Shown here: one piece after another, positions 31,512-63,317 of the stretch
Numbering within the stretch: position 1 is the stretch's first letter
Layout: each line of letters starts with the position of its first letter
Program-made: the position numbers and the translations under genes
Source: an uncultured Ilumatobacteraceae bacterium
Lineage (GTDB): Bacteria; Actinomycetota; Acidimicrobiia; Acidimicrobiales; Ilumatobacteraceae
DNA length: 64,000 nt
Reading direction: 5' to 3'
NCBI GenBank assembly: GCA_964565705.1
Contig: CAZMGD010000003.1
Coordinates: forward strand, 12,799 to 76,798
The notes under the pieces: model-generated
The model's database searches: none
What the model saw: only the letters and a program-made list of their open reading frames with translations
What the model was told of the DNA's origin: nothing

Positions 31512-32531
31512 GTGCACTACGACCTCCGACTCCGGCCTGCGCAACCGCAGGCGCCCGCCGCCGATGCCTATGAGATCCACCGCAGCGAGGTGCCGGCGAC
31601 AGCTGGTCGTGACGCGCTGACGGTGGCCTACGTGCGCGAGGGGGCCGGTGGCTACCCGCTGGTGCTGCTGCACGGCTACCCCGAGACCAAGCGGATCTGG
31701 TGGCGGAACATCGACGCCCTCGTGGCCGCCGGCTACGAGGTGATCGTGCCCGACCTGCGCGGGTTCGGGGACTCGGACCTCTCCGCCGACGACGTGTACG
31801 ACCTCGCCGCCTACAGCCGCGACGTGTACCTGCTGGTGCGCGACGCGCTCGGGCACGAGACGTGCGGGATCGTCGGCGGTGACGTCGGCGGGGCGACCGC
31901 GGTCGATCTCGTCCACCGGTTTCCCGGGTTCGTCGACAAGCTCGTGTTCTTCGACACGGTGCCGCCGATGTGCATCGACGACTACGTCGCCGCCGGCATC
32001 GACCTCGGCGCGATGCGCTCCATCGGGTCGGGTCCGACCGGTGACTACCGGTACCGCCAGGGCGCGACGCCCGACGAGCTGGCCGCCGAGCTGGACACGC
32101 CCGCCAAGCGCCGCCGGTACATCGGCGACATGTACGGCCACCGACTGTGGGCGTCGCCGGGCACGTTCGATCAGGACGCGATCGACTTCATGACCGAGCC
32201 GTTCGCGACCGACGAGCGGATCCGGGCGAGCTGGGCCGTCTACCAGCTCGCGCACGGTCGACCGTCCAGCGAGCCGGCGCTGATGAGCGACAAGGTCGAC
32301 GTGGCGACGCTGATCCTCTACGGCATGGACGACCAGGTGGTCGGGCCGGACTTCGTGCACTGCTGCGAGATCGCGTTCACCGACCGCGTCGGCCCGGTCG
32401 TGCTGCCCGGCGCCGGCCACTTCCTCCAGTGGGAGCGCGCCGACCTGTTCAACGGGCTGGTGGCCAGCTTCTTCGGCGATCTCCGCGAGCGTCACCGAAC
32501 CGGGACCCCCACCTGGATCTCAACTACTTGA
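31512..32531 (+). CDS. Alpha/beta hydrolase, epoxide hydrolase / haloacetate dehalogenase-like
   Basis: LVLLHGYPETKRIWWRNI and nucleophile context IVGGDVGG. Start is uncertain (GTG 31512 chosen, GTG 31440 possible). Confidence 0.8.
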   Translation: MHYDLRLRPAQPQAPAADAYEIHRSEVPATAGRDALTVAYVREGAGGYPLVLLHGYPETKRIWWRNIDALVAAGYEVIVPDLRGFGDSDLSADDVYDLAAYSRDVYLLVRDALGHETCGIVGGDVGGATAVDLVHRFPGFVDKLVFFDTVPPMCIDDYVAAGIDLGAMRSIGSGPTGDYRYRQGATPDELAAELDTPAKRRRYIGDMYGHRLWASPGTFDQDAIDFMTEPFATDERIRASWAVYQLAHGRPSSEPALMSDKVDVATLILYGMDDQVVGPDFVHCCEIAFTDRVGPVVLPGAGHFLQWERADLFNGLVASFFGDLRERHRTGTPTWISTT

Positions 32532-32538
32532 CATCAAG
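32515..32538. promoter_or_regulatory. Type-2 AT-rich operator-like palindrome, site 2a
   Basis: The minus strand reads CTTGATGTCAAG-TA-GTTGAGATCC. Spans the hydrolase stop and lies ~48 nt upstream of the KstD-like ATG 32586. Confidence 0.55.
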
Positions 32539-32585
32539 TGGTTGGTGATCGATGATGGCCGCGCTGGCTGTCGTTGGGGGTGCAC

Positions 32586-34304
32586 ATGGCCGACTGGGGA
32601 CACAACGTCGACCTCTTGGTCATGGGATCGGGCGCCGCCGGACTGGCCGGGGCACTGCGGGCCGCCAGCCTCGGCCGTTCGGTGCTGATCGTCGAGAAGA
32701 GCGACGTGTGGGGTGGCTCGGCGGCGATGTCGGCCGGCGCGCTGTGGGTGCCGTGCAACACCGCGATGCGAGTCATCGGTCTCGAGGACTCCGAGGACGA
32801 CGCCATCCGCTACCTGACCTCCATCACCCACGGCGAGATCGACGAGTCGCGGCTGCGCGCGTTCGTCACCGAGTCGAACCGGATGATCGACTGGCTCGCC
32901 GCCAACAGCCACGTGACGTTCACGTCCCTGGAGCACTACCCCGACTACAACACCGACGTCGACGGTGCCCGACCCGGTGGCCGCTCGCTGGAACCGGATG
33001 CCTTCGACGCGACCGAGCTGGGCGACGCGTTCCGCACGCAGCACGAGCCTTACCCGGGCACGCTGATCCTGGGCAAGTTCCTGATGCGCATCCCCGAGGC
33101 GCGCGACCTCCTGATGCCGGGCATCAAGCCGAAGCTCGGCCTCGCCAAGGGTTTCGCCCGGTACTCCTCGAGATCCACGGCCCGCAAGCGATTCGGTGGC
33201 CGCGACCCGTACCTCACGATGGGGCAGGCGCTGACGGCGAGGCTGCGCCTATCGCTGAACGAGCGCGGTGTGCCGCTGTGGCTGAACGCACCCGTGCGCT
33301 CGCTGATCACCGAGGGCGACCGCGTCGTCGGCGCCGAGGTGGAGCGCGACGGTCGCACCGTCCGCGTTCGCGCCCACCGCGGCGTGCTGGTCGCATCGGG
33401 CGGCTTCGAGCGCGACCCGGAGATGCGCCAGCGGTATCAACGCGCACCGATCGGGGTCGACTGGACGGTGGGGCACGTCGGCAACACCGGCGACGGCATC
33501 CGTGCCGGCGAGGCGGTCGGCGGCGCGCTCGACACGGCGCTCATGGCCGAGGCGTGGTGGACGCCAGCGGTCGTCCCACCGGGCAGGGGCCCATCGGTCC
33601 TGGTGATCGAGAAGAGCCTGCCGCACGGCCTGTTCGTCACCCGCGACGGCCATCGGTTCGTGAACGAGGCGGCCAACTACAACGACGTGGGCGTCGTCAT
33701 GTTCGACACCGAGCAGCGCGGCGACGGCGCGGTGCCGGCCTGGTGGATCGTCGATGCGACCTACCGCAAGCGGTTCATCATCGGCCCGGTCGGGCCCGGC
33801 CAGATGATGCCGGACAAGAAGTTGCCGACCGCGCTGCAGCCCGGCAACGGCTGGCTGCACAAGGCCGAGACCCTCGACGACCTGGCCCGCGAGATCGGGC
33901 TCGACCCCGCCGTGCTCGGCGCGACCATCGAGCGGTTCAACGCCAACTCCCGGCGCGGCGACGACCCCGACTTCCATCGCGGCGAGACCGCCAACGACCG
34001 CTACTACTCCGACCCGCGGGTCAGCCCGAACCCGTCGCTCGGACCGGTCGAGACGGCGCCGTTCTACGCGGTGGAGGTGTTCCCGGGTGACCTCGGGACG
34101 AAGGCCGGGCTGATCACCGATGGCTCCAGCCGGGTGCTGCGCGAGGACGGCTCGGTGATCACCGGGCTGTACGCCGCCGGCAACACCGCGTCCACCGTGA
34201 TGGGCCGCTCGTACCCGGGCGCCGGTGCGACCCTCGCGCCGGCGATGCTCGGCGGATTCCTCGCCGCTGAGGCACTGGCGGCCGACGACGAGCACACCGG
34301 CTGA
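32586..34304 (+). CDS. FAD-dependent oxidoreductase, 3-oxosteroid 1-dehydrogenase (KstD) family
   Basis: DLLVMGSGAAGLAGAL, VEKSDVWGGSAAMSAGALW and a C-terminal GLYAAGN. ATG 32586 follows GGGGG; the track ORF starts at 32574. Confidence 0.8.
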   Translation: MADWGHNVDLLVMGSGAAGLAGALRAASLGRSVLIVEKSDVWGGSAAMSAGALWVPCNTAMRVIGLEDSEDDAIRYLTSITHGEIDESRLRAFVTESNRMIDWLAANSHVTFTSLEHYPDYNTDVDGARPGGRSLEPDAFDATELGDAFRTQHEPYPGTLILGKFLMRIPEARDLLMPGIKPKLGLAKGFARYSSRSTARKRFGGRDPYLTMGQALTARLRLSLNERGVPLWLNAPVRSLITEGDRVVGAEVERDGRTVRVRAHRGVLVASGGFERDPEMRQRYQRAPIGVDWTVGHVGNTGDGIRAGEAVGGALDTALMAEAWWTPAVVPPGRGPSVLVIEKSLPHGLFVTRDGHRFVNEAANYNDVGVVMFDTEQRGDGAVPAWWIVDATYRKRFIIGPVGPGQMMPDKKLPTALQPGNGWLHKAETLDDLAREIGLDPAVLGATIERFNANSRRGDDPDFHRGETANDRYYSDPRVSPNPSLGPVETAPFYAVEVFPGDLGTKAGLITDGSSRVLREDGSVITGLYAAGNTASTVMGRSYPGAGATLAPAMLGGFLAAEALAADDEHTG

Positions 34305-34358: not shown

Positions 34359-34862
34359 ATGGCACCACGCAAGCGGGTCGACGACGCCCCCATCCCGCAG
34401 GCGGACACGGCGGACTACCGCCCGCGCGAGTTCGGCCGGATCACCTGGCTGATCAAGCTCGCCGAGCGAGAGGTCGGCAAGGAGCTCGATCGCGAGCTTC
34501 GCCACTCCGGTCTGACCAAGTCGCAGTTCGGTGTGCTGCAGGCGCTCATGCACCTCGAGCGGGCATCGTCGGCGGCTCTCGCTCGCACCGTCTTCGTGAC
34601 GCCACAGGCGATGGTCGGGATCGTCGCCGGCTTGGAGCGCAAGGGGTTCATCCGCCGCAAGACCTCGCGGGCGTCGGCACGCGTGATCGAGGCGACGGTC
34701 ACGGCGGCGGGCAGAGCCGCCTACGACGAGGGGGTCGACATGATCCGCAAGGTCGACGACATGCTCGCCCAGGAGTTCACCGACACCGAGCTGAGCGCCC
34801 TCAACGACTACCTGGAGCGGATGATCAACGTCGTCCAGACCGCCAACGGCAGCTTCCCCTGA
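34359..34862 (+). CDS. MarR family transcriptional regulator
   Basis: Winged-HTH core LTKSQFGVLQAL...ALARTVFVTPQAMVGIVAGLERKGFIRR. Alternative GTG start at 34311. Confidence 0.88.
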   Translation: MAPRKRVDDAPIPQADTADYRPREFGRITWLIKLAEREVGKELDRELRHSGLTKSQFGVLQALMHLERASSAALARTVFVTPQAMVGIVAGLERKGFIRRKTSRASARVIEATVTAAGRAAYDEGVDMIRKVDDMLAQEFTDTELSALNDYLERMINVVQTANGSFP

Positions 34863-34876: not shown

Positions 34877-35935
34877 TCAGCCGAACGTGGCGAACGCCTT
34901 GTTCGAGTTGAACACGGTCGTCTCGACGTAGGTGCTCCACGTCAGGCCGAGCCCCGCCTCCTCCACGGCGCCGAGCAGGCAGAACCAGTTGAGCATCTCC
35001 TGCTGACCGGAGCGCTCGATCGAATCGAGCGTCGCGTCGTGCCAGGGTGCGTGGTCGCCGCTGACCAGCGCCTCGTAGAGCACGCGGTCGGCGGGGTTGT
35101 CCGGCCACATCCGCCACCCGGCGTCGTGCAGGAAGCCGTGCGACCAGCTCGACGAGGCGACGAGCGCGACCCGAAGATCGCTCGCCGCGGCGGCCCGGGC
35201 GACGGCGCGGCCGACCTCGATGCACCGTCGCGGCGACGGGCTCGGCGGGTCGAGCGGCGGGGGCTCGTCATCGGCAGCGAAGCGGGCCATCCCGCCGCGT
35301 CGGCCGATCGCCAGGCGCCCGTAGCAGTTGACCGTCATCGGCACCACCGGATGCGCGAACCCATCCCGTCCGTAGTCGAGGAACAGCACCGTGTTGGCGA
35401 TCGCGTGGGGGAACGGCCGGTCGGCGCGCGGTCCGTACGAGTAGGCGACGTCGACGCCGTCGTCGAGCAGCGCGGCGGCGAGCGACCGGCCGAACGCGGC
35501 ATGGCCAGGCACGCCGAACGTCGTGTCGATCGGTTCGTCCCACACGTTCGGGACCGCCGTCCCCGACGGTGATCGCCACGGCTGGAACGTCAGCTCGTCG
35601 GCGGCGATCACGCAGAACGCCGGCACGACGTCCTCACGGAACAGCTCGTACTGGTCGTCGCCCCAGATCACGACGGCGTCGGGTCCGAACGCGTCCAGCT
35701 CGGCACGGATGCGCGCGCACCCGGCGACCAGCGCCGACCGATGGGCCCGAGCCGCCTCGATCCGGTCGCGGTCGTACTCGGCGCGCATCCCCTCCGGCCA
35801 GCCGTCCCCGGCCTTGACCGCCTCGGGCACCGCAGGATCGGCGAGCGCGAACTGCAGCGCCCGATCCATCATCTCGTCGGGCCAGGCGAGCGGTGGGAAG
35901 TGGGTGAGGCCGAGACCGAGGATCTCACCCATCAC
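34877..35935 (-). CDS. Class III (LigB-type) extradiol ring-cleavage dioxygenase family protein
   Basis: 352 aa with ILGLGLTHFPPL, VVIWGDDQYE and SSSWSHGF, typical of PF02900 enzymes. Confidence 0.7.
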   Translation of the reverse strand: MMGEILGLGLTHFPPLAWPDEMMDRALQFALADPAVPEAVKAGDGWPEGMRAEYDRDRIEAARAHRSALVAGCARIRAELDAFGPDAVVIWGDDQYELFREDVVPAFCVIAADELTFQPWRSPSGTAVPNVWDEPIDTTFGVPGHAAFGRSLAAALLDDGVDVAYSYGPRADRPFPHAIANTVLFLDYGRDGFAHPVVPMTVNCYGRLAIGRRGGMARFAADDEPPPLDPPSPSPRRCIEVGRAVARAAAASDLRVALVASSSWSHGFLHDAGWRMWPDNPADRVLYEALVSGDHAPWHDATLDSIERSGQQEMLNWFCLLGAVEEAGLGLTWSTYVETTVFNSNKAFATFG

Positions 35936-37133
35936 TGGCCCCGAGCCCGAACACCCGGCGGGCGTTGCCCGTCAGCACCCGGTCGCGATCGTCGGGGGAG
36001 AGGTGAGCGACCTGCCCGAGCAGCAGCTCCCGGGTGTGCGGCCAGCTGCTGTCGCCGTGGGGGTAGTCGCACTCCACCATCACGTTGCCGACGCCGATCT
36101 CCTCGATCGACGCCGCGCCGTGCCGATCGTCGATGAAGCACCCGAAGACGTGGTCGCGGAACAGCTCGCTCGGGCGGACATCCACCGAGCCGAGGTTGAA
36201 CGAGCCGGCGTCGACCGAGCCCATCCCGGTGAGGCCGAAGCCGGTGCCCGTCTTGAGGCGCGGTGCGTAGCGGTCGAACACGTAGTCGGCGCGCTCGAGG
36301 ATCGCCGGGATCCAGCCGATGCCGCCTTCGGACAGGCACAGCTTGAGGTTCGGGTAGCGGACGAACAGCCCGCTGTAGAGCCAGTCGGCGAGGGCCGAGG
36401 CAGCGAGGTTCGACGGCAGCGTCGCGACCACGAGCGGAGGTGCGTCGTCGCAGGTGTAGGGCAGCCTGGACGACGACCCGATGTGCGCGCACACCGGCAT
36501 GTTCGCCTCGGCGCAGGCGGCGAACACCGGATCCCAGTACTTGGTCCGGTCATGCACCGACGGGAGGCCGAGCGCGGCCGGGTTCTCCGAGAACGTGACC
36601 GCACGCGCTCCCTTGGCCGCGCAGCGCTCCACCTCGGCGAGCGCGAGCGACGCGTCCCACAGCGGGAGGATGATCATCGGGATCAGGCGACCGGGCACGG
36701 CCGCGCACCACTCGTCGATCATCCAGTCGTTGTAGGCGCGCACGCAGGCGAGGCCGAGCTCGCGGTCGGCCGCCTCGGTGAACTCCTGGCCGCAGAAGCG
36801 CGGGAACGACGGGAAGCAGAGCGACGCGTCGATGCCCGCCGCGTCGAGGTCGCGGACGCGTGCCTCGGGCTGGTAGCAGCCGGGACGTAGGTCTTCGTAG
36901 CGCTCCGGGAAGTCGACGAGGTCGCGCTTGCCCGACGCCGGGTCGAACAACCGCCCGCCGAGCTCGGCGAGCGGCTTGCGCTTGCGCTCGAAGCGCCACA
37001 CGATCGTGCCATCCTCCTCGACGGCGCGCGGGCACTCGTCGAGCCACTTGCGCGGCAGGCGACTCGTCCACACGTCGGGTGGCTCGACGACGTGATCGTC
37101 CACCGAGATCATCCGCACCTCGTCGATGCTCAC
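35925..37133 (-). CDS. Amidohydrolase-2 family metal-dependent hydrolase/decarboxylase (paralog of 7379..8599)
   Basis: Start GTG 37133 overlaps the upstream stop (GTGA), giving 402 aa. ISVDDHVVEPP, FPRFCGQ, AYNDWMIDEW, HIGSSS and ECDYPHGDSSWP are collinear with the paralog. Confidence 0.85.
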   Translation of the reverse strand: MSIDEVRMISVDDHVVEPPDVWTSRLPRKWLDECPRAVEEDGTIVWRFERKRKPLAELGGRLFDPASGKRDLVDFPERYEDLRPGCYQPEARVRDLDAAGIDASLCFPSFPRFCGQEFTEAADRELGLACVRAYNDWMIDEWCAAVPGRLIPMIILPLWDASLALAEVERCAAKGARAVTFSENPAALGLPSVHDRTKYWDPVFAACAEANMPVCAHIGSSSRLPYTCDDAPPLVVATLPSNLAASALADWLYSGLFVRYPNLKLCLSEGGIGWIPAILERADYVFDRYAPRLKTGTGFGLTGMGSVDAGSFNLGSVDVRPSELFRDHVFGCFIDDRHGAASIEEIGVGNVMVECDYPHGDSSWPHTRELLLGQVAHLSPDDRDRVLTGNARRVFGLGASDG

Positions 37134-38128
37134 CTGGTCGCGCCCTCCGTCAGCCCGAGGAACGCGCATGCGCTGCGCCTCCTGATCGTGTCGAGCGTGC
37201 CAACGTCGAGGCCCTCCTGTTCGGCGAGCGCGTCGAGCACGTAGCCGGGGCGCTCGGCGAAGAACGGGGCATCCGACCCGATCATCACCCGATCGGGCCC
37301 GACGAGGTCGACGAGGGCGCGCAAGGCCGCCGGCTCGTAGGTCAGCGTGTCGTACCACAGGGCCCGGGCCGCCGCGTACGGGGACGGGCTGCGTGCGGCG
37401 CGGGCCGCGTCGGTGTGCCAGAACGCCGCCATCCGGGGCAGGTGCATCGTGAACGTGCCGCCGCCATGGCTGGCGCCGAGGCGCAACCCCGGGCTCTGCT
37501 CGACCGCCCCGTTGGCGAGCAGCGCGGCGACGCAGGTGCCGATCTCGGGCGGGAAGTTCACCGCCGCCGACATCGGGGGGTCGGCCACGCAGCTCCAGTG
37601 CGGCGGGTGGAACGCGTGGACGAACACGCACAGACCGGCGGCGGCCGCCGCTCTGAAGAACGGCAGGAACGCCGGCGATCCGGCGCTGACGCCGTTCACG
37701 TTCGAGCCGATCTGGACGCCCACCAACCCCAGATCCCGCACCTGATCGAGCGCCTCGATCGCGGCGCCGACGTCCTGCAGGGGCACGGTGCCCAGACCGA
37801 CGAAGCGACGCTGGTCGGCGGCCACCATGGCCGCGATCGCCTCGTTGAGGGCGGCGCAGAAGCGCCGCCCGACCGCCGGCTCCGCCCAGTAGCTGAACAG
37901 CTCGGGCATCACCGACAGCGCCTGCACCTGCACGCCCGCTGCGTCCATCTCCACCAGGCGCGCCGCTGGATCCCACGCCGGCTGTGACACGGTGCGGAAC
38001 AGGGTTCCACCGACCAGCACGTCGGCCACGTCGTTCCGCTGGACCAGTGACGCGAACCGGTCGTCGTGCCCGAACGGCAGCCCCTCCGGCACCACATGCG
38101 TGTGGACGTCGATCACGATGGTGCTCAC
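37130..38128 (-). CDS. Amidohydrolase-2 family protein (ACMSD/LigW-like decarboxylase or lactonase type)
   Basis: IDVHTHVVP is near the N-terminus; also VFVHAFHPP and MIGSDAPF. GTG 38128 is chosen; GTG 38173 would sit inside the operator/promoter. Confidence 0.78.
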   Translation of the reverse strand: MSTIVIDVHTHVVPEGLPFGHDDRFASLVQRNDVADVLVGGTLFRTVSQPAWDPAARLVEMDAAGVQVQALSVMPELFSYWAEPAVGRRFCAALNEAIAAMVAADQRRFVGLGTVPLQDVGAAIEALDQVRDLGLVGVQIGSNVNGVSAGSPAFLPFFRAAAAAGLCVFVHAFHPPHWSCVADPPMSAAVNFPPEIGTCVAALLANGAVEQSPGLRLGASHGGGTFTMHLPRMAAFWHTDAARAARSPSPYAAARALWYDTLTYEPAALRALVDLVGPDRVMIGSDAPFFAERPGYVLDALAEQEGLDVGTLDTIRRRSACAFLGLTEGATR

Positions 38129-38163
38129 CCCCTCGGCGTCAATGTCGCATCGATGACAGGTGG

Positions 38164-38183
38164 TTGTCAACACGTTGATATTC
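38164..38183. promoter_or_regulatory. Type-2 AT-rich operator-like palindrome, site 2b (TTGTCAAC-AC-GTTGATATTC)
   Basis: Lies in the divergent region between the amidohydrolase operon (-) and the P450 operon (+). Confidence 0.6.
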
Positions 38184-38192
38184 CACTACGTT
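38164..38192 (+). promoter_or_regulatory. Candidate housekeeping-sigma promoter for the P450 operon (-35 TTGTCA, 17-nt spacer, -10 TACGTT)
   Basis: Hexamers read directly. The -10 fits the TAnnnT pattern. Lies 30 nt upstream of GTG 38222. Confidence 0.4.
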
Positions 38193-38221: not shown

Positions 38222-39391
38222 GTGGCCGTCGTTTCGTTGAGCGATCCCGACTTCCTGCTCGATCCGTATCCGGCGATCGCCGAGCACCGCCACGAGGGGA
38301 TCGTCCCCAACCCGGATCAAGGCGGCTGGTGGGTGCTCGACTCCGAGGCGATCTGGTCGCTCATCCGCGACCCGCGCTCGGCCAGCGACCCGGAGCTGGC
38401 CGACCCCGACGCCCCGATCACCAAGGTGTTCAAGAACGGTCGGCTGTCGATCTTCTACATGGATCCGCCCGATCACACCCGCGTGCGCGGCTCGGTGAAG
38501 GCCGACTTCGCCCCCCGCCAGGTGGCCGACCTCGAGTCGACGATCGTCGCCACGGCGACCGAGATCCTCGACCGGTTGCCGGCCTCCGGGCGGATCGACG
38601 TCGCCGCGTCGTTCGGCGACGTGCTGCCGATGACGGTGATGAGCGACTTCCTCGGTGTGGAGCCCGAGCGCCGTGACGAGTTCCGCACCTGGACCCTGAC
38701 CCGGATCAAGGGCATGTTCAACCCGAAGCTCAACAACACGCCAGAGTTCATCGAGTCGACGGTCCGGCTGCGCCAGTACTTCTCGGAGCGGATCGGCGCA
38801 GCGGAGCGAGGGCCGGTGCCCGGCCTCGTCGGCCAGTTGGTGGCGAGCGGGGAACTGAGTCACGACGAGATGGTCGACCTGCTCGTGGTGATGCTCGGCG
38901 CCGGGATCATCACCACGGCCGACCTGATCTCCAACACCCTCCACGCGTTGCTCACCAACCCGGGTGAGTTGGCGGCGCTGTACGCAGACCGTGAACTGAT
39001 CCCGGCGGCGATCGAGGAGACGCTGCGCTTCGACTCGCCCGCGCTGTCGGCCGGCCGGATCCTGACCGAGGACCGCGAGATGTTCGGGCACCCCATCGCC
39101 GCGGGCACGTGGCTGAGGCTGATGACCGCCGCCGTCGGGCGCGATCCCGCTCGCAACCCGGATCCCGACCGATATTCGTTGCGTCGCGAACGACGCGAGC
39201 ACGTGGCGTTCGGTGGAGGGCTGCACCACTGCCTCGGCCTCCACCTGGGGAAGCTCGAAGCAGGTGTGGCGTTGGGCCTGCTCCTGGATCGGTACCCGTC
39301 CATGTCGCTCGCCGACATGCCCGATCCCGCGGTCCGGCGCATCGTTCCGGGGTTCCGAGGCTTCGACCACCTGTGGATCGAGGCGGCGTGA
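38222..39391 (+). CDS. Cytochrome P450
   Basis: Heme loop FGGGLHHCLGLHLG, EETLR (ExxR) and I-helix AGIITTA. GTG 38222 follows AAGGGGGG. Confidence 0.92.
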   Translation: MAVVSLSDPDFLLDPYPAIAEHRHEGIVPNPDQGGWWVLDSEAIWSLIRDPRSASDPELADPDAPITKVFKNGRLSIFYMDPPDHTRVRGSVKADFAPRQVADLESTIVATATEILDRLPASGRIDVAASFGDVLPMTVMSDFLGVEPERRDEFRTWTLTRIKGMFNPKLNNTPEFIESTVRLRQYFSERIGAAERGPVPGLVGQLVASGELSHDEMVDLLVVMLGAGIITTADLISNTLHALLTNPGELAALYADRELIPAAIEETLRFDSPALSAGRILTEDREMFGHPIAAGTWLRLMTAAVGRDPARNPDPDRYSLRRERREHVAFGGGLHHCLGLHLGKLEAGVALGLLLDRYPSMSLADMPDPAVRRIVPGFRGFDHLWIEAA

Positions 39392-44521: not shown

Positions 44522-44534
44522 GAGCATCAGGACA

Positions 44535-44555
44535 TTGATATCAAGTCGTTGACAT
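44535..44555. promoter_or_regulatory. Type-2 AT-rich operator-like palindrome, site 2c
   Basis: The plus strand reads TTGATATCAAG-TC-GTTGACAT; the minus strand reads ATGTCAAC-GA-CTTGATATCAA. Lies 54 nt upstream of ATG 44609. Confidence 0.6.
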
Positions 44556-45490: not shown

Positions 45491-45523
45491 CCCGACCACG
45501 CAGGCAAGGCCAAGGAGACCACC

Positions 45524-50292: not shown

Positions 50293-50335
50293 TGGTGCTG
50301 CCCCCGGGTGCCGTCTCGCCGATGCCCCGGGAACA

Positions 50336-54266: not shown

Positions 54267-54270
54267 CGGC

Positions 54271-55032: not shown

Positions 55033-55457
55033 GCGTCACCTCCCGGCCGGTCGACGAGCACCTTCTCGTACGAGCCGGGACTGGTGATCGCCATGTACGA
55101 CGCCGGTTCGGCCCCGACGTTGTGGATGCCGTGGGGCACGGTGGCGGGCACGATCACCGCCTTGCCGGCCGTCACCCGGATCGGGTCGAGGTCGGCCAGG
55201 TGGTACTCGACCTCGCCGCGCAGCACGACGTGCAGGTGCTCGGTCGTCGGGTGCATGTGGAAGTCGTTCCACTGGCCGGGTTCGAGGTTCCAGAGCACGA
55301 TGCCGAGCTGGCCGGCGATCCAGGCGAAGGACACGACGGCCGACTCCTCCGAGAAGATCTGGTAGTCCGCGGGATCGAACACGAACGTCGCCGGATCGTT
55401 CGGATCGATCCTGCCGGCCAGCTCCGCGTGGATCTGCTCGTGTGACGCGTCAGCCAT
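55029..55457 (-). CDS. Cupin domain protein
   Basis: HMHPTTEHLHVVLRGE...VPHGIHN is a two-His cupin motif. ATG 55457 lies 6 nt after GGAG; ATG 55463 is an alternative. Confidence 0.75.
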   Translation of the reverse strand: MADASHEQIHAELAGRIDPNDPATFVFDPADYQIFSEESAVVSFAWIAGQLGIVLWNLEPGQWNDFHMHPTTEHLHVVLRGEVEYHLADLDPIRVTAGKAVIVPATVPHGIHNVGAEPASYMAITSPGSYEKVLVDRPGGDA

Positions 55458-56427: not shown

Positions 56428-56867
56428 CAGGCGCTCGTCGCGAACGTCAGGTACGGCAGGATCGGGCTCATGTCGCTGTAGACCTTCTCGCCGAGGGAGA
56501 TCTCGCCGTCGAAGGCGAAGATCCCGACCGACTTCACCGTCGCCATCTCGCCGGGCGTGCTGCCGTCGAGCCCGTTGGGGAAGTCGGTCTCGACCTCGAC
56601 GATGACGTTGTCGTCGGCATGGTGGAAGCGCACGGCCCGGTGGACGATCCCAGGCAGCGCAGTGAACATCAGCTCCAGCAGCTGACGCACCTCGTCCTGG
56701 CCGCGCAACACCACGTCGATCGACGCCAGGTCGTACGTGGGCGGATCGATCATCGTGGCGAGCACCATGTCGGCGTTCATCTCGGTCTCGCCGCGCAGGT
56801 GGGTGGCGAGCGTCGCTTCGCGCTTGGCGCGCAGCTCGGCGCTCGGCGATGTCGGGGTGTCGGTCAT
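56427..56867 (-). CDS. SnoaL/NTF2-fold (ester cyclase-like) protein
   Basis: 146 aa. Pattern DMVLATMIDPPTYD...GIVHRAVRFHHADDNVIVE...FDGEISLGEKVY. Confidence 0.55.
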   Translation of the reverse strand: MTDTPTSPSAELRAKREATLATHLRGETEMNADMVLATMIDPPTYDLASIDVVLRGQDEVRQLLELMFTALPGIVHRAVRFHHADDNVIVEVETDFPNGLDGSTPGEMATVKSVGIFAFDGEISLGEKVYSDMSPILPYLTFATSA

Positions 56868-56901
56868 TGGAGTGCTCCTCTCAGGTGCGGATGCGGGTCG
56901 A

Positions 56902-58104
56902 TCAGCCGAACGGACCGGGCGCTGGTGGCAGGCCCATCACCATCCGACCCCAGTTGCCGTACGCGGTGTCGGTGTTGAACCCCTGGTGGGCGGCGAGCCC
57001 GCGCACGTCGCGCCACCACTTGTTGGCCGGATGTCCCTCGAACAGCGCCGACCCGCCGCTGCGCCGCATCGTCTCGTCGACGACGTCGGTGCACAGCTTC
57101 ACGGCGAACGTCGAGTCCCGGCCGACGGCCAGGGCGCTGGCGGGATCCGCGGGCCCGTCGCCCGGGTCGTCGAGCTGCCGGGCGGTCGTGCGCAGGACCG
57201 TCTCGGCCGCGCTCACCATCGCCGACACCTCGCCGATGTGCACGAGCATCGGCCCCTCGGTGCCGATGCGCTCACCGGTGTAGATGAGCCGCTTCGACTG
57301 CATGTACTCGGTGAAGTGCTTCACCGCGGCGCGAGCCCCGCCGAGGATCGGCGCGGCGAGATAGATCGCGAGGCAGGTGAACGACCGCCGGAACAGCGGC
57401 GACGTGTTGACCTCGGCCCCCGGCGTCATGCCCATCAGGGCGAGCATCGGGTCGAGGATCCGGTGGTCGGGGATCACCGTGTGCTCGATCGACAGCGAGT
57501 TGCTGCCGGTGCCCTGGGCGCCGACCGTGCGCCAGTCGGTCCCGACCGCGTAGTCGGTGCGCGGCACGAGACCCCACCGCATCGCCGGTGGCGTGCCGTC
57601 GTCACCGGCCGGCGTCCGGAATCCCACCATCGCCCACTCGGCGTGATCCGATGCCGACGAGAACGGCCAGGTTCCGTCGGTCAGTTGCCAGCCGCCGTCC
57701 ACCCGCGCCACGCCCGCTCGCGACGGCGCGAACGACGAGGACATCAGCACCGTCGCGTCATCGTCCCAGATGTCGTGCTGCGCCTGGTCGGGGAACAGGC
57801 CGATGATCCACTCATGGCTGGCGAGGATGACGTACGCCCAGCCGACCGACACGTCGCCCTCGGCGAGGGTCGCGCCGACGTCGAGGATCGCCTCCACGCC
57901 GAGCTCGGGACCGCCGAAGCGCGCTGGCTGGTTGAGACGCAGCAGGCCCGACGCCCGCAGCTCGTCCATCGTCGAGTCGGGCACGCGGCGCAGCGCTTCG
58001 GTCTCGGCCCACCGCTCGGGCAGCCGGGCCGCGATCGCCGCCGCGCGCTCGACGGCGTCGTCGGCGGTCTGCGGCGGGTCGGTCTGGACGGGTGACTCGA
58101 TCAC
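56902..58104 (-). CDS. Acyl-CoA-dehydrogenase-fold flavin-dependent monooxygenase, HsaA-like oxygenase component
   Basis: Collinear with HsaA as I recall it: LRRVPDSTMDELRASGLLRLNQP..FGG, GWAY...HEW and DGGWQLTGTWPFSS. GTG 58104 follows GGAG + 7 nt; the track ORF starts at 58143. Confidence 0.78.
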   Translation of the reverse strand: MIESPVQTDPPQTADDAVERAAAIAARLPERWAETEALRRVPDSTMDELRASGLLRLNQPARFGGPELGVEAILDVGATLAEGDVSVGWAYVILASHEWIIGLFPDQAQHDIWDDDATVLMSSSFAPSRAGVARVDGGWQLTDGTWPFSSASDHAEWAMVGFRTPAGDDGTPPAMRWGLVPRTDYAVGTDWRTVGAQGTGSNSLSIEHTVIPDHRILDPMLALMGMTPGAEVNTSPLFRRSFTCLAIYLAAPILGGARAAVKHFTEYMQSKRLIYTGERIGTEGPMLVHIGEVSAMVSAAETVLRTTARQLDDPGDGPADPASALAVGRDSTFAVKLCTDVVDETMRRSGGSALFEGHPANKWWRDVRGLAAHQGFNTDTAYGNWGRMVMGLPPAPGPFG

Positions 58105-58205
58105 GCAAGCGCTCCATGGCTCAGACGGTGGGTGGCGGCTCACCGCGCGGTCCCCGGTTCGCGCCCGATCGGTCTGCCGACGCCATCATCCTTCATCATC
58201 CACAC

Positions 58206-58230
58206 CTTGATGTCAATGTCTTGATATTCA
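58206..58230. promoter_or_regulatory. Type-2 AT-rich operator-like palindrome, site 2d (CTTGATGTCAAT-GT-CTTGATATTCA)
   Basis: Lies ~100 nt upstream of the HsaA-like start and just after ABC ATPase stop 58234. Confidence 0.6.
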
Positions 58231-58233
58231 TGG

Positions 58234-58929
58234 TCAACGCAAGTAGCTCGCAGCCACGAGCTCCCCTTCGGCGGCGAGTTCGGCGGCGCTCCCGGCCAGC
58301 ACGACGTCGCCATGGTTGAGCACGACCGCGCGGTCCGCGACGCGCAGCGCCTTGTGCACGTGCTGCTCGACGAGCAGCACACCGCAGCCGCCGTCGGTCG
58401 CGATCGTGCGCAGGACGGGTAGGAGTCGGTCGACGATGATCGGCGCCAGGCCGAGGCTCATCTCGTCGACCATCAAGAGGCGTGGGCGGCCGAGCAGCGC
58501 TCGCCCGAGCGCGAGCATCTGCTGCTCGCCACCCGACAGCAGTCCCGCCCGCCGGTCGAGCAGCGGCTCGAGCGCCGGGAACAGGTCGAGCACCCGCTCG
58601 AGGTCACCTGCGCCGCCACGCCCGAGCCGGAGGTTCTCGCGGACCGTCAGCTGGAAGAACAGCGCCCGGTCCTCGGGCACGTGCCCCAGACCCAGGCGGG
58701 CGAGCTGGTGCGGCCGGCGGCCCTTGGTCGTGGCGCCGAACAACGTGATCTCACCGTGCAGCACGGGCAGGATGCCTGAGATCGTGAGCAGCGACGTGGT
58801 CTTGCCCGCCCCGTTCGGGCCGAGCAGGGCGACGACCTCGCCCTCGGCGACCTCGAGGTCGAGATCGCGCACGACGGGCACGCCGTCGTACCCGGCGCGC
58901 AGGCCCGACACGCGCAGCAGCGCGGTCAC
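58234..58929 (-). CDS. ABC transporter ATP-binding protein, LivF type
   Basis: GTG 58929 overlaps the upstream stop (GTGA), giving 231 aa. Walker A GPNGAGKTT, signature LSGGEQQ, Walker B LLMVDE. Confidence 0.9.
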   Translation of the reverse strand: MTALLRVSGLRAGYDGVPVVRDLDLEVAEGEVVALLGPNGAGKTTSLLTISGILPVLHGEITLFGATTKGRRPHQLARLGLGHVPEDRALFFQLTVRENLRLGRGGAGDLERVLDLFPALEPLLDRRAGLLSGGEQQMLALGRALLGRPRLLMVDEMSLGLAPIIVDRLLPVLRTIATDGGCGVLLVEQHVHKALRVADRAVVLNHGDVVLAGSAAELAAEGELVAASYLR

Positions 58930-59696
58930 GAGGTGCCCTCGGGCTCGTCGATGCCGAGGTACGCCTCGCGCACGAGCGGATCGCTGCGCACCTCGTCGGC
59001 ACTGCCGTGGGCGATGACCTGGCCGAACTCCAGCACGTAGATGCGCTGGCAGATGCCGAGCACCAGGCCCATGTCGTGATCGACCAAGAGGACGCTCGTG
59101 CCGTGATCGACCACTCGCTGGATCGCCCGGCCGAGCTGCACGCTCTCGTCCGAGTCGAGCCCGGCCGCGGGCTCGTCGAGCAGCACGACGCGCGGTTCGG
59201 CGACCAGTGCCCGGGCGACGCCGACGAGCTTGCGCTGGCCGAGGGAGAGGTCGTCGGGCATGCGGGGCAGCAGGTCGCCGATCCCGAGCACGGTCGTCGC
59301 CCACTCGAGCGCAGAGCTGTGACACCGCCGCCGGGGGCGCACGACATCGGCGAGCGGCGCCCACCACTTGGGGCGCTCCGCGGCCACCAGCAGGTTCTCC
59401 TCGACCGTGAGATCGCCGAACAGCTCCAGGGACTGGAACGTGCGGGTCAGGCCGGCGAGCGAGCGGCGGTGCGCGCCGAGCCGGTTCATCTCCTGCCCGC
59501 AGAACTCGACCACCCCGGTGCTCGGCACGAACCCGGTGATCGCGTCGATGCAGGTCGTCTTGCCCGCGCCGTTGGGCCCGATCAGGCCGACCAGCTCGCC
59601 GCTGTCCACGTGCAGGTCGACCTGGTTCACCGCGACGAGACCACCGAAGCGGACCATCAGGCCACGGGTCGCGAGCAGGGTGGCACGCTCGGTCAT
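58926..59696 (-). CDS. ABC transporter ATP-binding protein, LivG type
   Basis: 256 aa. Walker A GPNGAGKTT, LSLGQRK, VVLLDEPAAG. Confidence 0.9.
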   Translation of the reverse strand: MTERATLLATRGLMVRFGGLVAVNQVDLHVDSGELVGLIGPNGAGKTTCIDAITGFVPSTGVVEFCGQEMNRLGAHRRSLAGLTRTFQSLELFGDLTVEENLLVAAERPKWWAPLADVVRPRRRCHSSALEWATTVLGIGDLLPRMPDDLSLGQRKLVGVARALVAEPRVVLLDEPAAGLDSDESVQLGRAIQRVVDHGTSVLLVDHDMGLVLGICQRIYVLEFGQVIAHGSADEVRSDPLVREAYLGIDEPEGTS

Positions 59697-61819
59697 CGGG
59701 CGAGCCCACCAGAGGTCGCCGTGGTCGTCAGCGGATCAACGGCAGCCGTCGCTTCGGCCTCGTCGCCGTGCGGCTGGCCGCCCGCGGCGTGCTGCCTGCG
59801 GCGGCGGCGCTTCGCGCGCTGCTCGTACAGGGCGCCGGCGACACCGGTGGGATGGAGCACGGCGACGACGATCAGGCCGAGCCCGCTCGCCAACTCCTGC
59901 CAGGCCTCGATGTGCACGACCTTCTCGAACAGCACGGTGGCCAAGCCGCCGAGGATGGTGATGCCGGCGATCATCGCCCCGCCGATGCTGGCGATGCCGC
60001 CGAGGTAGGCCACGGCGAGGAGGCTGAGCGACTGGAGCGCGGCGAACCCCTGCGGTGACAGCCGGCCACCCGCCTGGTAGGCGAGCAGTGCCCCGCCGAG
60101 CCCGGCGACGAACGACGACAGCGCGAACGCGGAGAGCTTGACGCGCGCGACGTGCACGCCCGCCGCTGCTGCTGCTGCCTCGTTCGAGCGCACGGCCAGC
60201 ATCCGCCGCCCGGTCGTCGAGCGGCGCAGGTTGGCGACGGCGAGGCACATCAGGCAGGTGACGATGAGCACCAGCACGCCGAACACCGGTGAGGGGATCT
60301 TGTCGTCGCCGAGGAAGAAGGAGTCGAACGGACCGAGCCCGATCCCGAACAGCTTCGGCGAGTCGGCGGTCAGCGGGCGGGCCTCGTACTGCGTCACCGT
60401 CGGGTTGTTGAACACCATCTTCTCGAGCACCACGGCGAGCGACAGGGTGATCACGGCCAGGTTGACCCCGCGGACGCGAAGCGCGGGGATCCCGACCAGC
60501 ACACCCAGCACGGTCGCGGCCAGCGCGGCGAGAAGCGGCGCCAGCGGGAACGGCACCCCCCACCGGCCGGAGATCCACGTCAATGCGAACGCGGAGAATC
60601 CGGCGATGGCCATCTGGGCGAGGGAGATCTGGCCGACGTAGCCGGTCAGCACGACGAGCGACAGCGCGAGGGTGACCCCGATCAAGGAGGTGGTGATCGC
60701 CTGGCGCACGTCGAACTGGAGGAACGACACGGCGACGAAGCCCACCGCGAACAGCGCCGTGACTCCGACCCCCGGGTGGTTCACGGGCGGTGCGCTGGGG
60801 AGCTTGCCCTCCCGCAGCGCGCCGCGGGTCGGGAGGGTGTCGCCGCGAACCATCATCGTCACCGCGATCACGAGGAACGGCACCAGCTCGCGGCTGCCGC
60901 GAGGCAACCAGTCGGTCGCCGGACGGGAGTCCAGGTACTGCACGAGCTGGTCGAGCATCCCGATCGCCAGCCCGGCCACGGCGGCGACGATGAAGGACGT
61001 GAAGCTGGCGACGAGGGCGGCCGCCAGCGCGGGGATCACGAACAGCGTGAAGTTGACCGGGCTGATCGTCGTGATCGGCGACACCAGGATCCCGACCAGC
61101 CCGGCGAGCAGCATCGCCAGCACCCAGTTCGCGCCGGCCAGCACGTCCGGGCTGTAACCGAGCAGCGACGCACCCTTCTCGTTCTCGGCAGCTGCGGTCG
61201 TCGCCAGGCCGAAGCGGGTGGCCCGGTACAGCAGCGTGAGCAGGAGCGCGAGGACGACCGTGACGGCCGCCAGCAACAGGCGATCCCACGGGATCACGAC
61301 GCCGGCGAAGTGGAACCCCGACGTCGGCAGGATCGAGCCGACGCTTCGGCTCTCGGATCCGAAGCGCAGCGTGATGCTCGCCTGGAGCACGAGCATGATG
61401 CCGACCGCGGCCACGACCTTGGCCAGCGGCGGCGCGTCGTGCATCGGTCGGAACACGAGGAAGTGCACCAGCAGCCCGATGATCATCCCGGCGCTCAGCG
61501 AGATGAGGAGCGCCGGGATGAACGGCATCGGGTCGCCGAAGCCGAGGAACGTCGGCCAGTCAGGGAGGTCGAGGTCGCCGCCGAAGAACCGGTTCGCAAC
61601 GCCCTCGACGAGCGCCAGCGGGTTGGGCAGCGGCAGCAGCGGCATCCGGCCGCTGCGCCGCAGCTCGCTGTAGGTGTAGGCCACGAACGCCGTGACGGCA
61701 CCGTGGCTGAAGTTGACGACCCCCGAACCCCGGTATGCGAGCACCAGGCCCTGTGCCATCGCCCCGTAGAGCGCCCCGGCCCCGAGGCCGAGGAGCATGA
61801 AGGCGAGATACGAGTTCAC
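59693..61819 (-). CDS. Fused LivH-LivM type branched-chain-amino-acid-family ABC permease
   Basis: 708 aa with two consecutive multi-TM permease modules. The stop overlaps the ATPase start (ATGA). Confidence 0.85.
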   Translation of the reverse strand: MNSYLAFMLLGLGAGALYGAMAQGLVLAYRGSGVVNFSHGAVTAFVAYTYSELRRSGRMPLLPLPNPLALVEGVANRFFGGDLDLPDWPTFLGFGDPMPFIPALLISLSAGMIIGLLVHFLVFRPMHDAPPLAKVVAAVGIMLVLQASITLRFGSESRSVGSILPTSGFHFAGVVIPWDRLLLAAVTVVLALLLTLLYRATRFGLATTAAAENEKGASLLGYSPDVLAGANWVLAMLLAGLVGILVSPITTISPVNFTLFVIPALAAALVASFTSFIVAAVAGLAIGMLDQLVQYLDSRPATDWLPRGSRELVPFLVIAVTMMVRGDTLPTRGALREGKLPSAPPVNHPGVGVTALFAVGFVAVSFLQFDVRQAITTSLIGVTLALSLVVLTGYVGQISLAQMAIAGFSAFALTWISGRWGVPFPLAPLLAALAATVLGVLVGIPALRVRGVNLAVITLSLAVVLEKMVFNNPTVTQYEARPLTADSPKLFGIGLGPFDSFFLGDDKIPSPVFGVLVLIVTCLMCLAVANLRRSTTGRRMLAVRSNEAAAAAAGVHVARVKLSAFALSSFVAGLGGALLAYQAGGRLSPQGFAALQSLSLLAVAYLGGIASIGGAMIAGITILGGLATVLFEKVVHIEAWQELASGLGLIVVAVLHPTGVAGALYEQRAKRRRRRQHAAGGQPHGDEAEATAAVDPLTTTATSGGLAR

Positions 61820-61848
61820 GAGGTGGTGCGTTCAGCCGTTCCGTGACG

Positions 61849-63240
61849 TCAGTTGGCGTAGGCGTCGTACGGGCCGGGCACCGCGTCGGTGAACGTGCCG
61901 TCGTCGTTGATCCGCATGATCCGGGTCTCGGTCGTGCAGAGCGCCGGCAGCACCGCGCCCGGGCACGACAGGGTGCGGGGCCCGAGGAACATCGGCCCGG
62001 TGAAGGACATCAGCCCGTCGCGCCAGCTGTCGCGGCTCAGGTTGTCGGCGCCGATGTCGTTGCCGATCTGCCACAGCGTGATCAGCTGGCCGAAGCTCTG
62101 CGAGGCGCTCGTCAGCCCGACGGCGTCGCCCAGTCCTGCGGCCTCCATCTGGGCGATGAAGAGGTCGAGCTCGGGGTCCTCATCGGTCAGACCGGGCAGC
62201 ACCGACGGTGCGCCGACCAGCCAGTCGGTGACGCCGCCGTTCGTCTCGTTGATCACGCTCGGGTCGCCGCACGACGAGACCGCGAGCACCGGCTTGTCGG
62301 AGCCGATCTGGGTGAGCGCGTTCGCCACCTGGGTGCAGGTGTTGGCGGCCGTGACCAGGATGTAGGCGTCGTTGTCGTTCGCCTGGAGGGCGCCGGCGAG
62401 GTCGGTCTCGGCGGTGCCGGCGAGCACCGAGTCGATCGTGATGCCGTCGAGCTGCGGCGCCGCCTTCATGCTGTCGATCACGGCCTGGCCACCACTGTTG
62501 CCCTCGGCGACGACGGTCAGCGACGTCGCGCCGAGCTCGCGCACGGCGTAGTCGGCGAGGCCGACCACGATGCCGGCGCCACCCGGCGTGAACGCGATCG
62601 CCGACGGGCTGGTGTAGTCGGCGGTGTTGAGCGGGGTGCCCTCCAGCGCGACCAGGTTTCCCTGCTCGAGCACCGGCCAGAACGCGTCCGAGCCGAGCAC
62701 GAACTGCGTGGTCACGATGTGGATCGAGTCGTCGTTGACCATCTGCTGGCCGCACTGCTGGTTGCTGTCGGGGTCGAGCCCCGTGTTGCAGTCGACCAGC
62801 TCGACCGGGTGGCCGCCGATGCCGCCGAGGCTGGTGTTGATGTACTCGACCGCGCCTTGCGCGCCGGCCAGGGGGCCGGGGAACGACGGTGTGCCCTCGC
62901 TCTGGTTGACGAGGCCGATCCGCACCGGATCGAGCGAGTCGTCGGCCGCACCGGTCTCCTCGGGGATGAAGAAGTCCCCGTCGGCCATCGCCTCGGTCGT
63001 GGACGGCGCCGCCGTGCTGCCCGAAGCAGCGGTGGTGCCCGGCGCGGCGGTGGTCGCCGTGCCGCCGCCTGCAGTGGTCTCCGGCGCAGCGGTCGTCTCG
63101 GCCGCGGCGGTCGTGTCCGCGGCGGCTGCCGTCGTCGCCGCGGCCGTGTCGTCCGTGTCGTCGTCCCCGCCGCATCCGGCGGCGAGCACGGTCAGCACGG
63201 CAGTGCACGCGAGCGCGCGCGTCCAACTCGATCGCAGCAT
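61849..63240 (-). CDS. ABC transporter substrate-binding lipoprotein (LivJ/PBP type 1 family) with Thr/Ala-rich linker
   Basis: Signal peptide and lipobox LAAGC, an ~70-aa T/A-rich linker, then a PBP1 fold (IGLVNQSEG, GADNLSRD...). Confidence 0.85.
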   Translation of the reverse strand: MLRSSWTRALACTAVLTVLAAGCGGDDDTDDTAAATTAAAADTTAAAETTAAPETTAGGGTATTAAPGTTAASGSTAAPSTTEAMADGDFFIPEETGAADDSLDPVRIGLVNQSEGTPSFPGPLAGAQGAVEYINTSLGGIGGHPVELVDCNTGLDPDSNQQCGQQMVNDDSIHIVTTQFVLGSDAFWPVLEQGNLVALEGTPLNTADYTSPSAIAFTPGGAGIVVGLADYAVRELGATSLTVVAEGNSGGQAVIDSMKAAPQLDGITIDSVLAGTAETDLAGALQANDNDAYILVTAANTCTQVANALTQIGSDKPVLAVSSCGDPSVINETNGGVTDWLVGAPSVLPGLTDEDPELDLFIAQMEAAGLGDAVGLTSASQSFGQLITLWQIGNDIGADNLSRDSWRDGLMSFTGPMFLGPRTLSCPGAVLPALCTTETRIMRINDDGTFTDAVPGPYDAYAN

Positions 63241-63292
63241 GTGAAATCCCCCTCGGTTGCTTGCCCCTGGGGTCAGTGAAAACCATCAGCTA

Positions 63293-63317
63293 CTTGATGT
63301 CAACACCTTTATCAATC
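63293..63317. promoter_or_regulatory. Type-2 AT-rich operator-like palindrome, site 2e (CTTGATGTCAAC-AC-CTTTATCAATC)
   Basis: Lies 53-77 nt upstream of substrate-binding-protein start 63240. Confidence 0.55.

Follow-up and report, generated by a model that had tools for sequence, protein, structure and literature searches.

The window analysed here is a stretch of 64,000 nucleotides from contig CAZMGD010000003.1 of an uncultured Ilumatobacteraceae bacterium (assembly GCA_964565705.1), with ~94% coding sequence and ~70% G+C. Its second half carries oxygenase and transport genes whose operons are headed by five copies of an AT-rich palindrome (O1 to O5 below), together with a gene encoding a MarR-family regulator (34359-34862). 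The present work deals with these palindromes, which are candidate operators of this regulator. Genes were delimited with a caller based on G+C content at the third codon position (GC3) and annotated by Pfam and NCBIfam. As stated in a first-pass annotation made from the letters alone, the sites are followed by genes encoding a KstD-like flavoprotein, amidohydrolases and a LigB-type enzyme, a cytochrome P450, a BphC/HsaC-like extradiol dioxygenase, a HsaA-like oxygenase and a Liv-type ATP-binding cassette (ABC) importer (Table 1). Pfam annotation of the called genes also agrees with the view that the MarR protein is the only classical DNA-binding regulator of this half.

Sequence and conservation of the five palindromes

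All five palindromes are present where the first-pass annotation placed them, with cores read directly from the window sequence. They share an 18-bp dyad, (A/T)T(G/A)TCAAS-NN-STTGA(C/T)A(T/A), whose TCAA and TTGA cores lie at -6..-3 and +2..+5 from the centre. Four of the five sites are intergenic, while O1 overlaps the stop codon of a hydrolase gene, 52 bp before the start of the KstD-like gene. The string TGTCAASNNSTTGA, with up to two mismatches, has 16 matches in the window for 5.5 expected, a number that none of 100 shuffles reached. Furthermore, the extra half-site string TTGATGTCAA, with at most one mismatch, is found six times for 0.68 expected. The extra upstream half-site previously reported at three sites corresponds to exact copies at 32528-32537, 58207-58216 and 63294-63303, and a fourth variant, TTGATATCAA, is located at 44535-44544.

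A weight matrix, one of the checks proposed along with the sites, was built as a symmetric matrix from 24 unique sites of other genomes, none of them from the window. It picks all five sites clear of background: they score 20.0-29.5 bits and the next window match 14.6 bits, and the maximum score in each of 200 dinucleotide shuffles of the window averaged 8.8 bits, with a highest value of 17.5 bits. O5 is the weakest of the five and its distal half is degenerate. The matrix scan found the motif in no promoter of the first half of the window. Moreover, no site of at least 20 bits was found in ~485 kb of other actinobacterial loci used as a control. This control set includes plasmid-borne homologues of the dioxygenase (58% identity) from Rhodococcus and Prescottella, which belong to a different cluster with an IclR regulator; for instance, the Rhodococcus plasmid carries a HsaA/HsaC-like gene pair and the IclR gene, with no MarR gene and no motif.

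The best non-operator match to the matrix (27156-27175, AAGATCAGCCACTTGATGTA, 14.3-14.6 bits) lies within an acyl-CoA dehydrogenase gene, ~200 bp from its 5' end. Its conservation in locus L050 (at 2148) is most simply explained by its position in coding sequence.

Forty loci were fetched around MarR homologues in species-representative genomes, and further contigs were obtained via homologues of the MarR protein, the extradiol dioxygenase, the HsaA-like protein and the importer binding protein (all designated L followed by a number). A metagenome scan with the HsaA-like protein gave one informative contig (L043) and one of 1.96 kb (L044) that ends at the 5' end of the gene and has no upstream DNA. 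Sites in L050-L055 and L058-L060 were left out of the first matrix and provide an independent validation.

Phylogenetic footprinting, also advised in the first-pass annotation, revealed counterparts of all five sites upstream of orthologous genes in other Acidimicrobiia contigs, with diverging flanks. O1 is kept before the KstD-like orthologues of L004, L050 and L051, where the left flanks diverge; in L050, a different gene lies upstream and the left flank is unrelated. O2 forms an invariant block in an alignment (A2) of 11 orthologous gaps, in which the only other conserved blocks are a TACGnT -10 hexamer, a ribosome-binding site and the start codon. O3 is kept before dioxygenase orthologues in L052 (90% identity) and in L054 and L055 (67%), and O4 before HsaA-like orthologues in L043, L052/L058, L053, L054, L059 and L060. 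O5 is kept before the binding-protein gene in L058, L059 and L060, where TTGACATCAAGTAGCTGATGGTTTTCACTG is retained and the distal half is degenerate in all cases. Judged by these sequence comparisons, the five AT-rich palindromes are real, evolutionarily conserved and functional-looking. The data support the earlier proposal that they represent one shared cis-element defining a regulon of the oxygenase/transport half.

Table 1. Palindromic sites, predicted promoters, genes and other features of the window, and heading sites of related operons in other genomes
Feature	Position	Strand	Sequence, content or score	Remarks
O1	32517-32534		ATCTCAAC-TA-CTTGACAT; 29.5 bits	heads KstD-like/MarR operon
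O2	38164-38181		TTGTCAAC-AC-GTTGATAT; 29.5 bits	93-bp gap between divergent amidohydrolase/LigB and P450 operons
O3	44538-44555		ATATCAAG-TC-GTTGACAT; 29.0 bits	upstream of extradiol dioxygenase operon
O4	58210-58227		ATGTCAAT-GT-CTTGATAT; 28.8 bits	between last ABC ATPase gene and HsaA-like operon
O5	63297-63314		ATGTCAAC-AC-CTTTATCA; 20.0 bits	upstream of ABC importer operon
Secondary dyad of O1	32530-32549		GACATCAAGTGGTTGGTGAT; 11.2 bits	offset 14 bp; in -35/-10 spacer
Secondary dyad of O2	38152-38171		10.5 bits	offset 11 bp
Secondary dyad of O3	44523-44542		11.7-13.5 bits	offset 14 bp; kept in L052 at 9915
Secondary dyad of O4	58195-58214		12.0-12.2 bits	offset 14 bp; in -35/-10 spacer of HsaA-like promoter; kept in L043, L052, L058
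Secondary dyad of O5	63282-63301		core TCAAG-TA-GCTGA; 12.0-13.1 bits	offset 14 bp; in spacer of importer promoter
Predicted O1 promoter	32528-32533 (-35), 32551-32556 (-10)		TTGACA, 17 nt, GATGAT
Predicted O2 rightward promoter	38164-38169 (-35), 38187-38192 (-10)		TTGTCA, 17 nt, TACGTT
Predicted O2 leftward promoter	38170-38165 (-35)		TTGACA, 18 nt, GACATT
Predicted O3 promoter	44549-44554 (-35), 44572-44577 (-10)		TTGACA, 17 nt, TAGGTT
Predicted O4 promoter	58216-58211 (-35), 58193-58188 (-10)	-	TTGACA, 17 nt, AAGGAT
Alpha/beta hydrolase gene	31440-32531
KstD-like FAD flavoprotein gene	32586-34304	+	FAD_binding_2, E 6.5e-85	first gene of O1 operon
MarR-family regulator gene	34359-34862	+	167 aa; MarR_2 (PF12802) 39.0 bits (cut-off 27); MarR (PF01047) 34.1 bits (cut-off 24.6)
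O2 leftward unit	34877-38128	-	LigB-type dioxygenase, two Amidohydro_2 genes
O2 rightward unit	38222-44521	+	P450, luciferase-like monooxygenase, fused indolepyruvate:ferredoxin oxidoreductase-family protein (1156 aa), short-chain dehydrogenase/reductase (SDR)	synteny conserved
O3 unit	44609-47535	+	extradiol dioxygenase (BphC/HsaC-like), DAP_DH_C-like, SnoaL_4, glyoxalase
Apparently inserted block	47542-51457		extracytoplasmic function (ECF) sigma factor with DUF6596, YCII gene, 1.19-kb uncalled stretch (49146-50335), DUF222/HNH gene
O4 unit	51544-58143	-	HsaA-like oxygenase, SnoaL_2, DHDPS-like, cupin, SDR, molybdenum hydroxylase large subunit, SnoaL_4
O5 unit	58234-63240	-	Liv-type ABC importer: binding protein, fused permease, two ATPases
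TetR-type palindromes	8642-8658, 11261-11277, 14424-14440, 17959-17975, 20233-20249, 28462-28478		TCTGAC-N5-GTCAGA
Heading site in L033	1136-1155
Heading site in L039	1066-1085
Heading site in L012	1075-1094

Promoter overlap and secondary dyads

Within every dyad there is a TTGACA or TTGTCA hexamer oriented towards the downstream gene, and in five of the six promoter directions this hexamer is followed, 17-18 nt further on, by a nAnnnT hexamer. The overlap of the motif with -35 hexamers at 17-nt spacing, already pointed out in the first-pass annotation, is therefore seen, with -10 boxes of the form TAnnnT or RAnGAT, and it fits repression by occlusion. The promoters of Table 1 follow the relaxed nAnnnT rule. 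A strict sigma-70 scan demands at least four of six matches to TATAAT and for this reason yields nothing beyond the O1 promoter and a single alternative at O2. At the predicted promoters, the candidate operators overlap core promoter elements, and the -10 is kept in the alignment of the 11 O2 gaps.

Such an overlap could also mean that the motif is mere promoter sequence, i.e. a strong -35 hexamer with AT-rich DNA upstream or in the spacer and no dedicated regulator. The presence of TTGACA or TTGTCA in every site and the recurrent spacing would be explained in this way. However, the half of the dyad that is not part of the -35, located upstream of it or in the spacer, is equally conserved (TCAA and TTGA each at 95-97% in the matrix). 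Since the motif is also absent from the first-half promoters and from the control loci, and secondary dyads occur at fixed phases (see below), we consider this explanation very improbable.

Another possibility is that the sites are promoters of the ECF sigma factor encoded at 47542-48843 (Sigma70_r2/r4 and DUF6596 domains, beside a YCII gene), TGTCAA being an ECF-type -35. The sigma gene does sit between the regulated blocks, and TGTCAAC-N17-CGTT at the P450 promoter loosely resembles what is generally known of ECF-type -35/-10 pairs. However, a sigma promoter has no need of the conserved dyad symmetry, the downstream hexamers vary (GATGAT, TAGGTT, AAGGAT and TACGTT), and both the orthologous region of L052 and the other loci lack the sigma/YCII block. 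The sigma factor is thus extremely unlikely to read the sites; it was rejected by argument only.

A weaker second dyad accompanies the primary one at a fixed phase. Of 37 distinct contexts, 13 have this partner at an offset of exactly 14 bp and seven at 11 bp. Except for one case at 15 bp, the other offsets from 1 to 30 bp yielded no partner dyad. The 11-bp-offset partner ATCTCAAG is kept in L002, L003, L005 and L007, and the secondary dyad of O5 is kept in L058 (18.3 bits), L059 and L060. At O1, O4 and O5, the second dyad is located inside the -35/-10 spacer. The first-pass annotation had raised the idea that two dimers bind at overlapping palindromes. The recurrence of a phased second half-site supports this idea, although it is not a proof.

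The importer promoter of the window (63282-63315) has orthologues in L058 (5886-5919), L059 (4596-4629) and L060 (1159-1192). In every genome, the primary dyad has a degenerate distal half (ATAAAG) and the spacer dyad TCAAG-TA-GCTGA is kept. Because of this difference in conservation, the functional operator at this promoter may be the so-called secondary dyad.

The MarR protein as candidate reader of the sites

The first-pass annotation had suggested that the regulator of the sites may be encoded elsewhere, as no site precedes the MarR gene. This suggestion is not supported, since O1 heads an operon in which the MarR gene comes second. A 54-bp gap, with no terminator-like feature noted in it, separates the KstD-like stop codon from the MarR gene, which would most simply be co-transcribed with the KstD-like gene from the O1 promoter. 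The 167-aa MarR protein, an identical copy of which is in the database as P0001, has a MarR winged-helix domain: its matches in the Protein Data Bank (PDB) are all MarR-family proteins. Moreover, the sites have the form of a palindrome of ~16-20 bp whose half-sites are about one helical turn apart. Close relatives of the protein (61-96% identity) come only from metagenomes and from metagenome-assembled genomes (MAGs) labelled Acidimicrobiia, Acidimicrobiaceae or Actinomycetes.

Among the 40 MarR loci, the strict motif pattern is confined to nine, in which the MarR protein shares 61-80% identity with that of the window; the 31 loci with more distant homologues lack it. In seven loci (L002, L003, L005, L006, L007, L008 and L010), the MarR start is preceded, at a distance of ~140-180 bp, by a site scoring 20-24 bits. 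The partner genes differ between loci: the MarR gene is the last gene of a motif-headed operon with the KstD-like gene in the window, L004, L050 and L051, and with two unknown genes and a P450 paralogue in L002, L003, L006, L007 and L010. Judging from these arrangements, the site follows the MarR gene and not one particular enzyme gene. Furthermore, in two Mycobacterium asiaticum loci (L033 and L039) and in an Actinomycetota MAG (L012), a MarR gene whose product is 51% identical ends a ~9-kb operon headed by a site of 22.6-26.5 bits (Table 1). This operon encodes a luciferase-like protein, an esterase, an extradiol dioxygenase, two unmatched proteins, DHDPS-like, cupin, SDR, HsaA-like and HsaC-like proteins, and MarR. 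Hence, marR is directly preceded by a site in seven loci and belongs to a site-headed operon in six others (L004, L050, L051, L012, L033 and L039), in addition to the window, where O1 heads the regulator's own operon; such an arrangement is expected of an autoregulated gene.

The regulon also appears to act in trans. In the MAG with WGS prefix CAZCCS01 (GCA_964497005.1), the MarR gene has its own site on contig 17 (L008), and two further sites, preceding KstD-like, HsaA-like and HsaC-like genes, are located on a separate contig, contig 30 (L054).

From these data, we estimate at about 0.75 the probability that the MarR-family regulator encoded at 34359-34862 has the five palindromes as its operators. 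Alternatively, another transcription factor (TetR, IclR, LysR or other) encoded outside the window could bind them, the MarR protein controlling something else. Two sites of L054 are indeed located beside a LysR gene on a contig without MarR gene, and motif and MarR gene might be associated simply through their shared synteny with the enzyme genes. However, the MAG of L054 does carry a MarR gene with its own site (on L008), no other regulator is common to the motif-bearing loci that were compared with the window proteins by BLAST, and the motif stands directly upstream of the MarR gene, or heads its operon, in Acidimicrobiia as well as in Mycobacterium. In addition, the TetR of the window has a separate palindrome. 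We therefore regard such an outside factor as unlikely.

This separate palindrome, TCTGAC-N5-GTCAGA, has six matches in the window with at most one mismatch, for 0.18 expected, all of them intergenic and in the first, beta-oxidation half. One copy lies 14 bp upstream of the gene encoding TetR (10597-11247, minus strand), the only one of the window, and the palindrome is probably the operator of this protein in a separate regulon. The closest match of the TetR protein is EthR (E 2e-7), and no KstR or KstR2 structure is found among its matches. No TetR orthologue was found in the motif-bearing loci compared by BLAST with the window proteins (L002-L010, L012, L033 and L039).

These data also bear on the possibility that the sites are KstR2-like boxes (CAAG-NN-CTTG core) of a TetR-family steroid regulator. 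The KstR and KstR2 systems likewise have palindromic boxes before many operons of a catabolic gene island, the neighbours here are KstD-, HsaA- and HsaC-like, and the core TCAAS-NN-STTGA resembles the KstR2 pattern AnCAAGnnCTTGnT, which reportedly originates from a description by Kendall et al. However, no KstR box (TnnAACnnGTTnnA) is found in the window, and none of the four matches to AnCAAGnnCTTGnT with at most one mismatch falls on the centre of a primary site. KstR and KstR2 belong to the TetR and not the MarR family and have no orthologue in the window, whose only TetR has its own type of operator. As the first-pass annotation put it, the core resembles KstR boxes without fitting them, and the same is true for KstR2 boxes. 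We thus find it very unlikely that the sites belong to a regulator of this kind.

Several points weigh against assigning the sites to the MarR protein as a repressor. First, no site is located immediately before marR in the window; autoregulation thus depends on co-transcription across the 54-bp gap, and the same absence would be expected with an outside factor. Second, O5 has a degenerate half, and its -35 hexamer is present with no recognisable canonical -10, although one was looked for. Third, MarR homologues from Catenulisporales (43-49% identity) have no motif within 10 kb and their gene contexts are unrelated. Fourth, motif and MarR gene are syntenic with the same enzyme genes, and co-occurrence alone leaves some room for an unlinked regulator. 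Fifth, an activator might in principle use a dyad whose centre is near -38, although the near-consensus -35 argues against a need for activation. Finally, the O2 leftward promoter would give almost no leader, which is at odds with the apparent ribosome-binding site.

With regard to the third point, the same pair of peptide patterns, VTPQAMVG being one of them, also retrieved the Catenulisporales homologues. Given their unrelated neighbourhoods and the absence of the motif, they and the Actinospica and Actinocrinis homologues in the same identity range can be viewed as uninformative, paralogue-like relatives. Other elements were observed ~195-275 bp upstream of the MarR homologue in these loci (within L013-L038), none of which has the motif of the window: a conserved element, TTTATCATGGCCTGGAGAG, in the Actinospica and Actinocrinis loci, and a different one, AATATGATGGGCTTGAACAA, in the Catenulispora loci.

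If the MarR protein reads the sites, the likely mechanism is repression by promoter occlusion, relieved by a pathway metabolite. A MarR dimer would bind the 18-bp dyad, whose TCAA and TTGA cores, ~9-10 bp apart, suit two winged helices in successive major grooves. Since one half of the dyad doubles as the -35 hexamer of a putative housekeeping-sigma promoter at every site, bound MarR would block RNA polymerase. The second, weaker dyad, 14 or 11 bp off and often in the spacer, would probably take a second dimer. A substrate or intermediate of the pathway would free the DNA of MarR and thereby de-repress six transcription units comprising ~30 genes; among them, the unit with the KstD-like gene and marR, placed under O1, would provide negative autoregulation. 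In this scheme, we infer MarR binding, the sign of the regulation, the promoters with their transcription starts, and the ligand from sequence.

Known systems, predicted pathway and neighbouring features

Named MarR equivalogs (HpaR, Saro_0803 family, BilQ and FabT) do not include the window protein, as their NCBIfam cut-offs are not reached; the best scores are 45.2 bits for the Saro_0803 family (cut-off 200) and 44.3 bits for HpaR (cut-off 121.2). Its best sequence match in the PDB is Rv2887 of Mycobacterium tuberculosis (E 5.6e-10, residues 41-145, covering the winged helix). However, this match amounts to only 43 bits and the genomic context and targets of Rv2887 are unrelated.

Among known architectures, the one most similar to that proposed here is the CouR regulon of Rhodococcus jostii. 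CouR is the MarR repressor of p-hydroxycinnamate catabolism in strain RHA1, and its regulon comprises four promoters with a TTGAcA -35, each overlapped by cATTGA-N5-TCAATg (PMC4737184). Both systems would thus combine an actinobacterial MarR, several catabolic promoters and a near-consensus TTGAcA -35 placed under a TTGA/TCAA inverted repeat. In both, one box serves a divergent promoter pair, the promoter of the regulator itself is included and de-repression is due to a pathway metabolite, which for the window is our own deduction (PMC4737184). By contrast, the CouR box has an outward polarity and a 5-bp spacer, whereas the window dyad is TCAAS-N2-STTGA, and neither the regulated genes nor the presumed ligand are the same. 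A second dyad phased at 14 bp does not appear in the passages on CouR consulted (PMC4737184). The CouR box itself (ATTGA-N5-TCAAT, at most one mismatch) was searched for and has no match in the window.

PcaV of Streptomyces coelicolor, the MarR repressor of the protocatechuate operon with TCAG-N4-CTGA operators, is another point of comparison (PMC3616709). It shares with the putative system of the window an aromatic catabolic operon, 20-bp inverted-repeat operators, autoregulation, and operators kept across species despite changes in gene order (PMC3616709). However, the PcaV operators are located downstream of the transcription start or near pcaV, and there are two of them in one intergenic region, versus five or six promoters here (PMC3616709).

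The system is best read as a MarR-controlled catabolic regulon, a well-known kind of system, found here in an uncultured and little-studied lineage. The mechanism itself would be textbook. Its interest lies in the fact that the motif joins ~30 genes of unassigned specificity into one putative regulon with a named candidate sensor. The window would accordingly divide in two, a TetR with TCTGAC-N5-GTCAGA for the beta-oxidation half and the MarR with the present motif for the oxygenase/transport half. The motif could also be used to find more members of the regulon in Acidimicrobiia genomes. Moreover, since a related MarR, motif and operon exist in cultured M. asiaticum, the regulator, its ligand and hence the substrate are approachable in that species.

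Concerning this substrate, the labels HsaA-, HsaC- and KstD-like used in the first-pass annotation hold as family-level similarity, but all three proteins score below the NCBIfam equivalog cut-offs (for instance, 558 bits for the KstD-like protein on the 3-oxosteroid 1-dehydrogenase model, whose cut-off is 788), so that these enzymes do not establish a steroid substrate. It is possible, but doubtful, that the MarR regulon marks an undescribed catabolic pathway, present from uncultured Acidimicrobiia to M. asiaticum, for a steroid-, oestrogen- or other polycyclic aromatic-like compound, with a MarR that senses an intermediate and binds as two dimers 14 bp apart. Such a pathway would combine the P450 and the indolepyruvate:ferredoxin-oxidoreductase-type enzyme with KstD-, HsaA- and HsaC-like enzymes and LigB/amidohydrolase steps. 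A P450 and an enzyme of the indolepyruvate:ferredoxin oxidoreductase type are likewise part of the oestrogen route of proteobacteria (EdcA/EdcC; PMC8085986). With respect to this aed/edc analogy, the best plasmid-borne matches of the P450 are only ~35% identical.

The gene order of the putative regulon is partly shared with other loci. The LigB/amidohydrolase synteny is kept in L002-L010 and L050-L052, the order of the O4 unit is repeated in L043, L053, L054, L059 and L060, and that of the importer in L059 and L060. An apparently inserted block (47542-51457) splits the units assigned to MarR in the window and is missing from the related contig L052.

Literature searches with the motif strings returned only unrelated eukaryotic papers, and an Rfam search of the window matched no RNA family. 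Exact-protein look-ups beyond the window edges returned only short Logan contigs of the same sequence. Several other features were observed in the window. A direct repeat, GGCTCGCTGCGCTCGC, occurs three times at 31307-31439, in the gap between the thiolase and alpha/beta hydrolase genes. A 605-bp gap at 23526-24130 has no confidently called gene; it is overlapped by a long open reading frame (23631-25148) without Pfam match. At 3173-4407, adjoining the catabolic island, a gene for an encapsulated ferritin (EncFtn) is paired with one for an encapsulin shell. Finally, a 68-nt element is present at 7227-7367, between convergent genes, as two tandem copies that are 82% identical and 73 bp apart; each copy forms a hairpin with 26-bp arms and looks like a repetitive extragenic palindromic (REP)-type repeat or a terminator.

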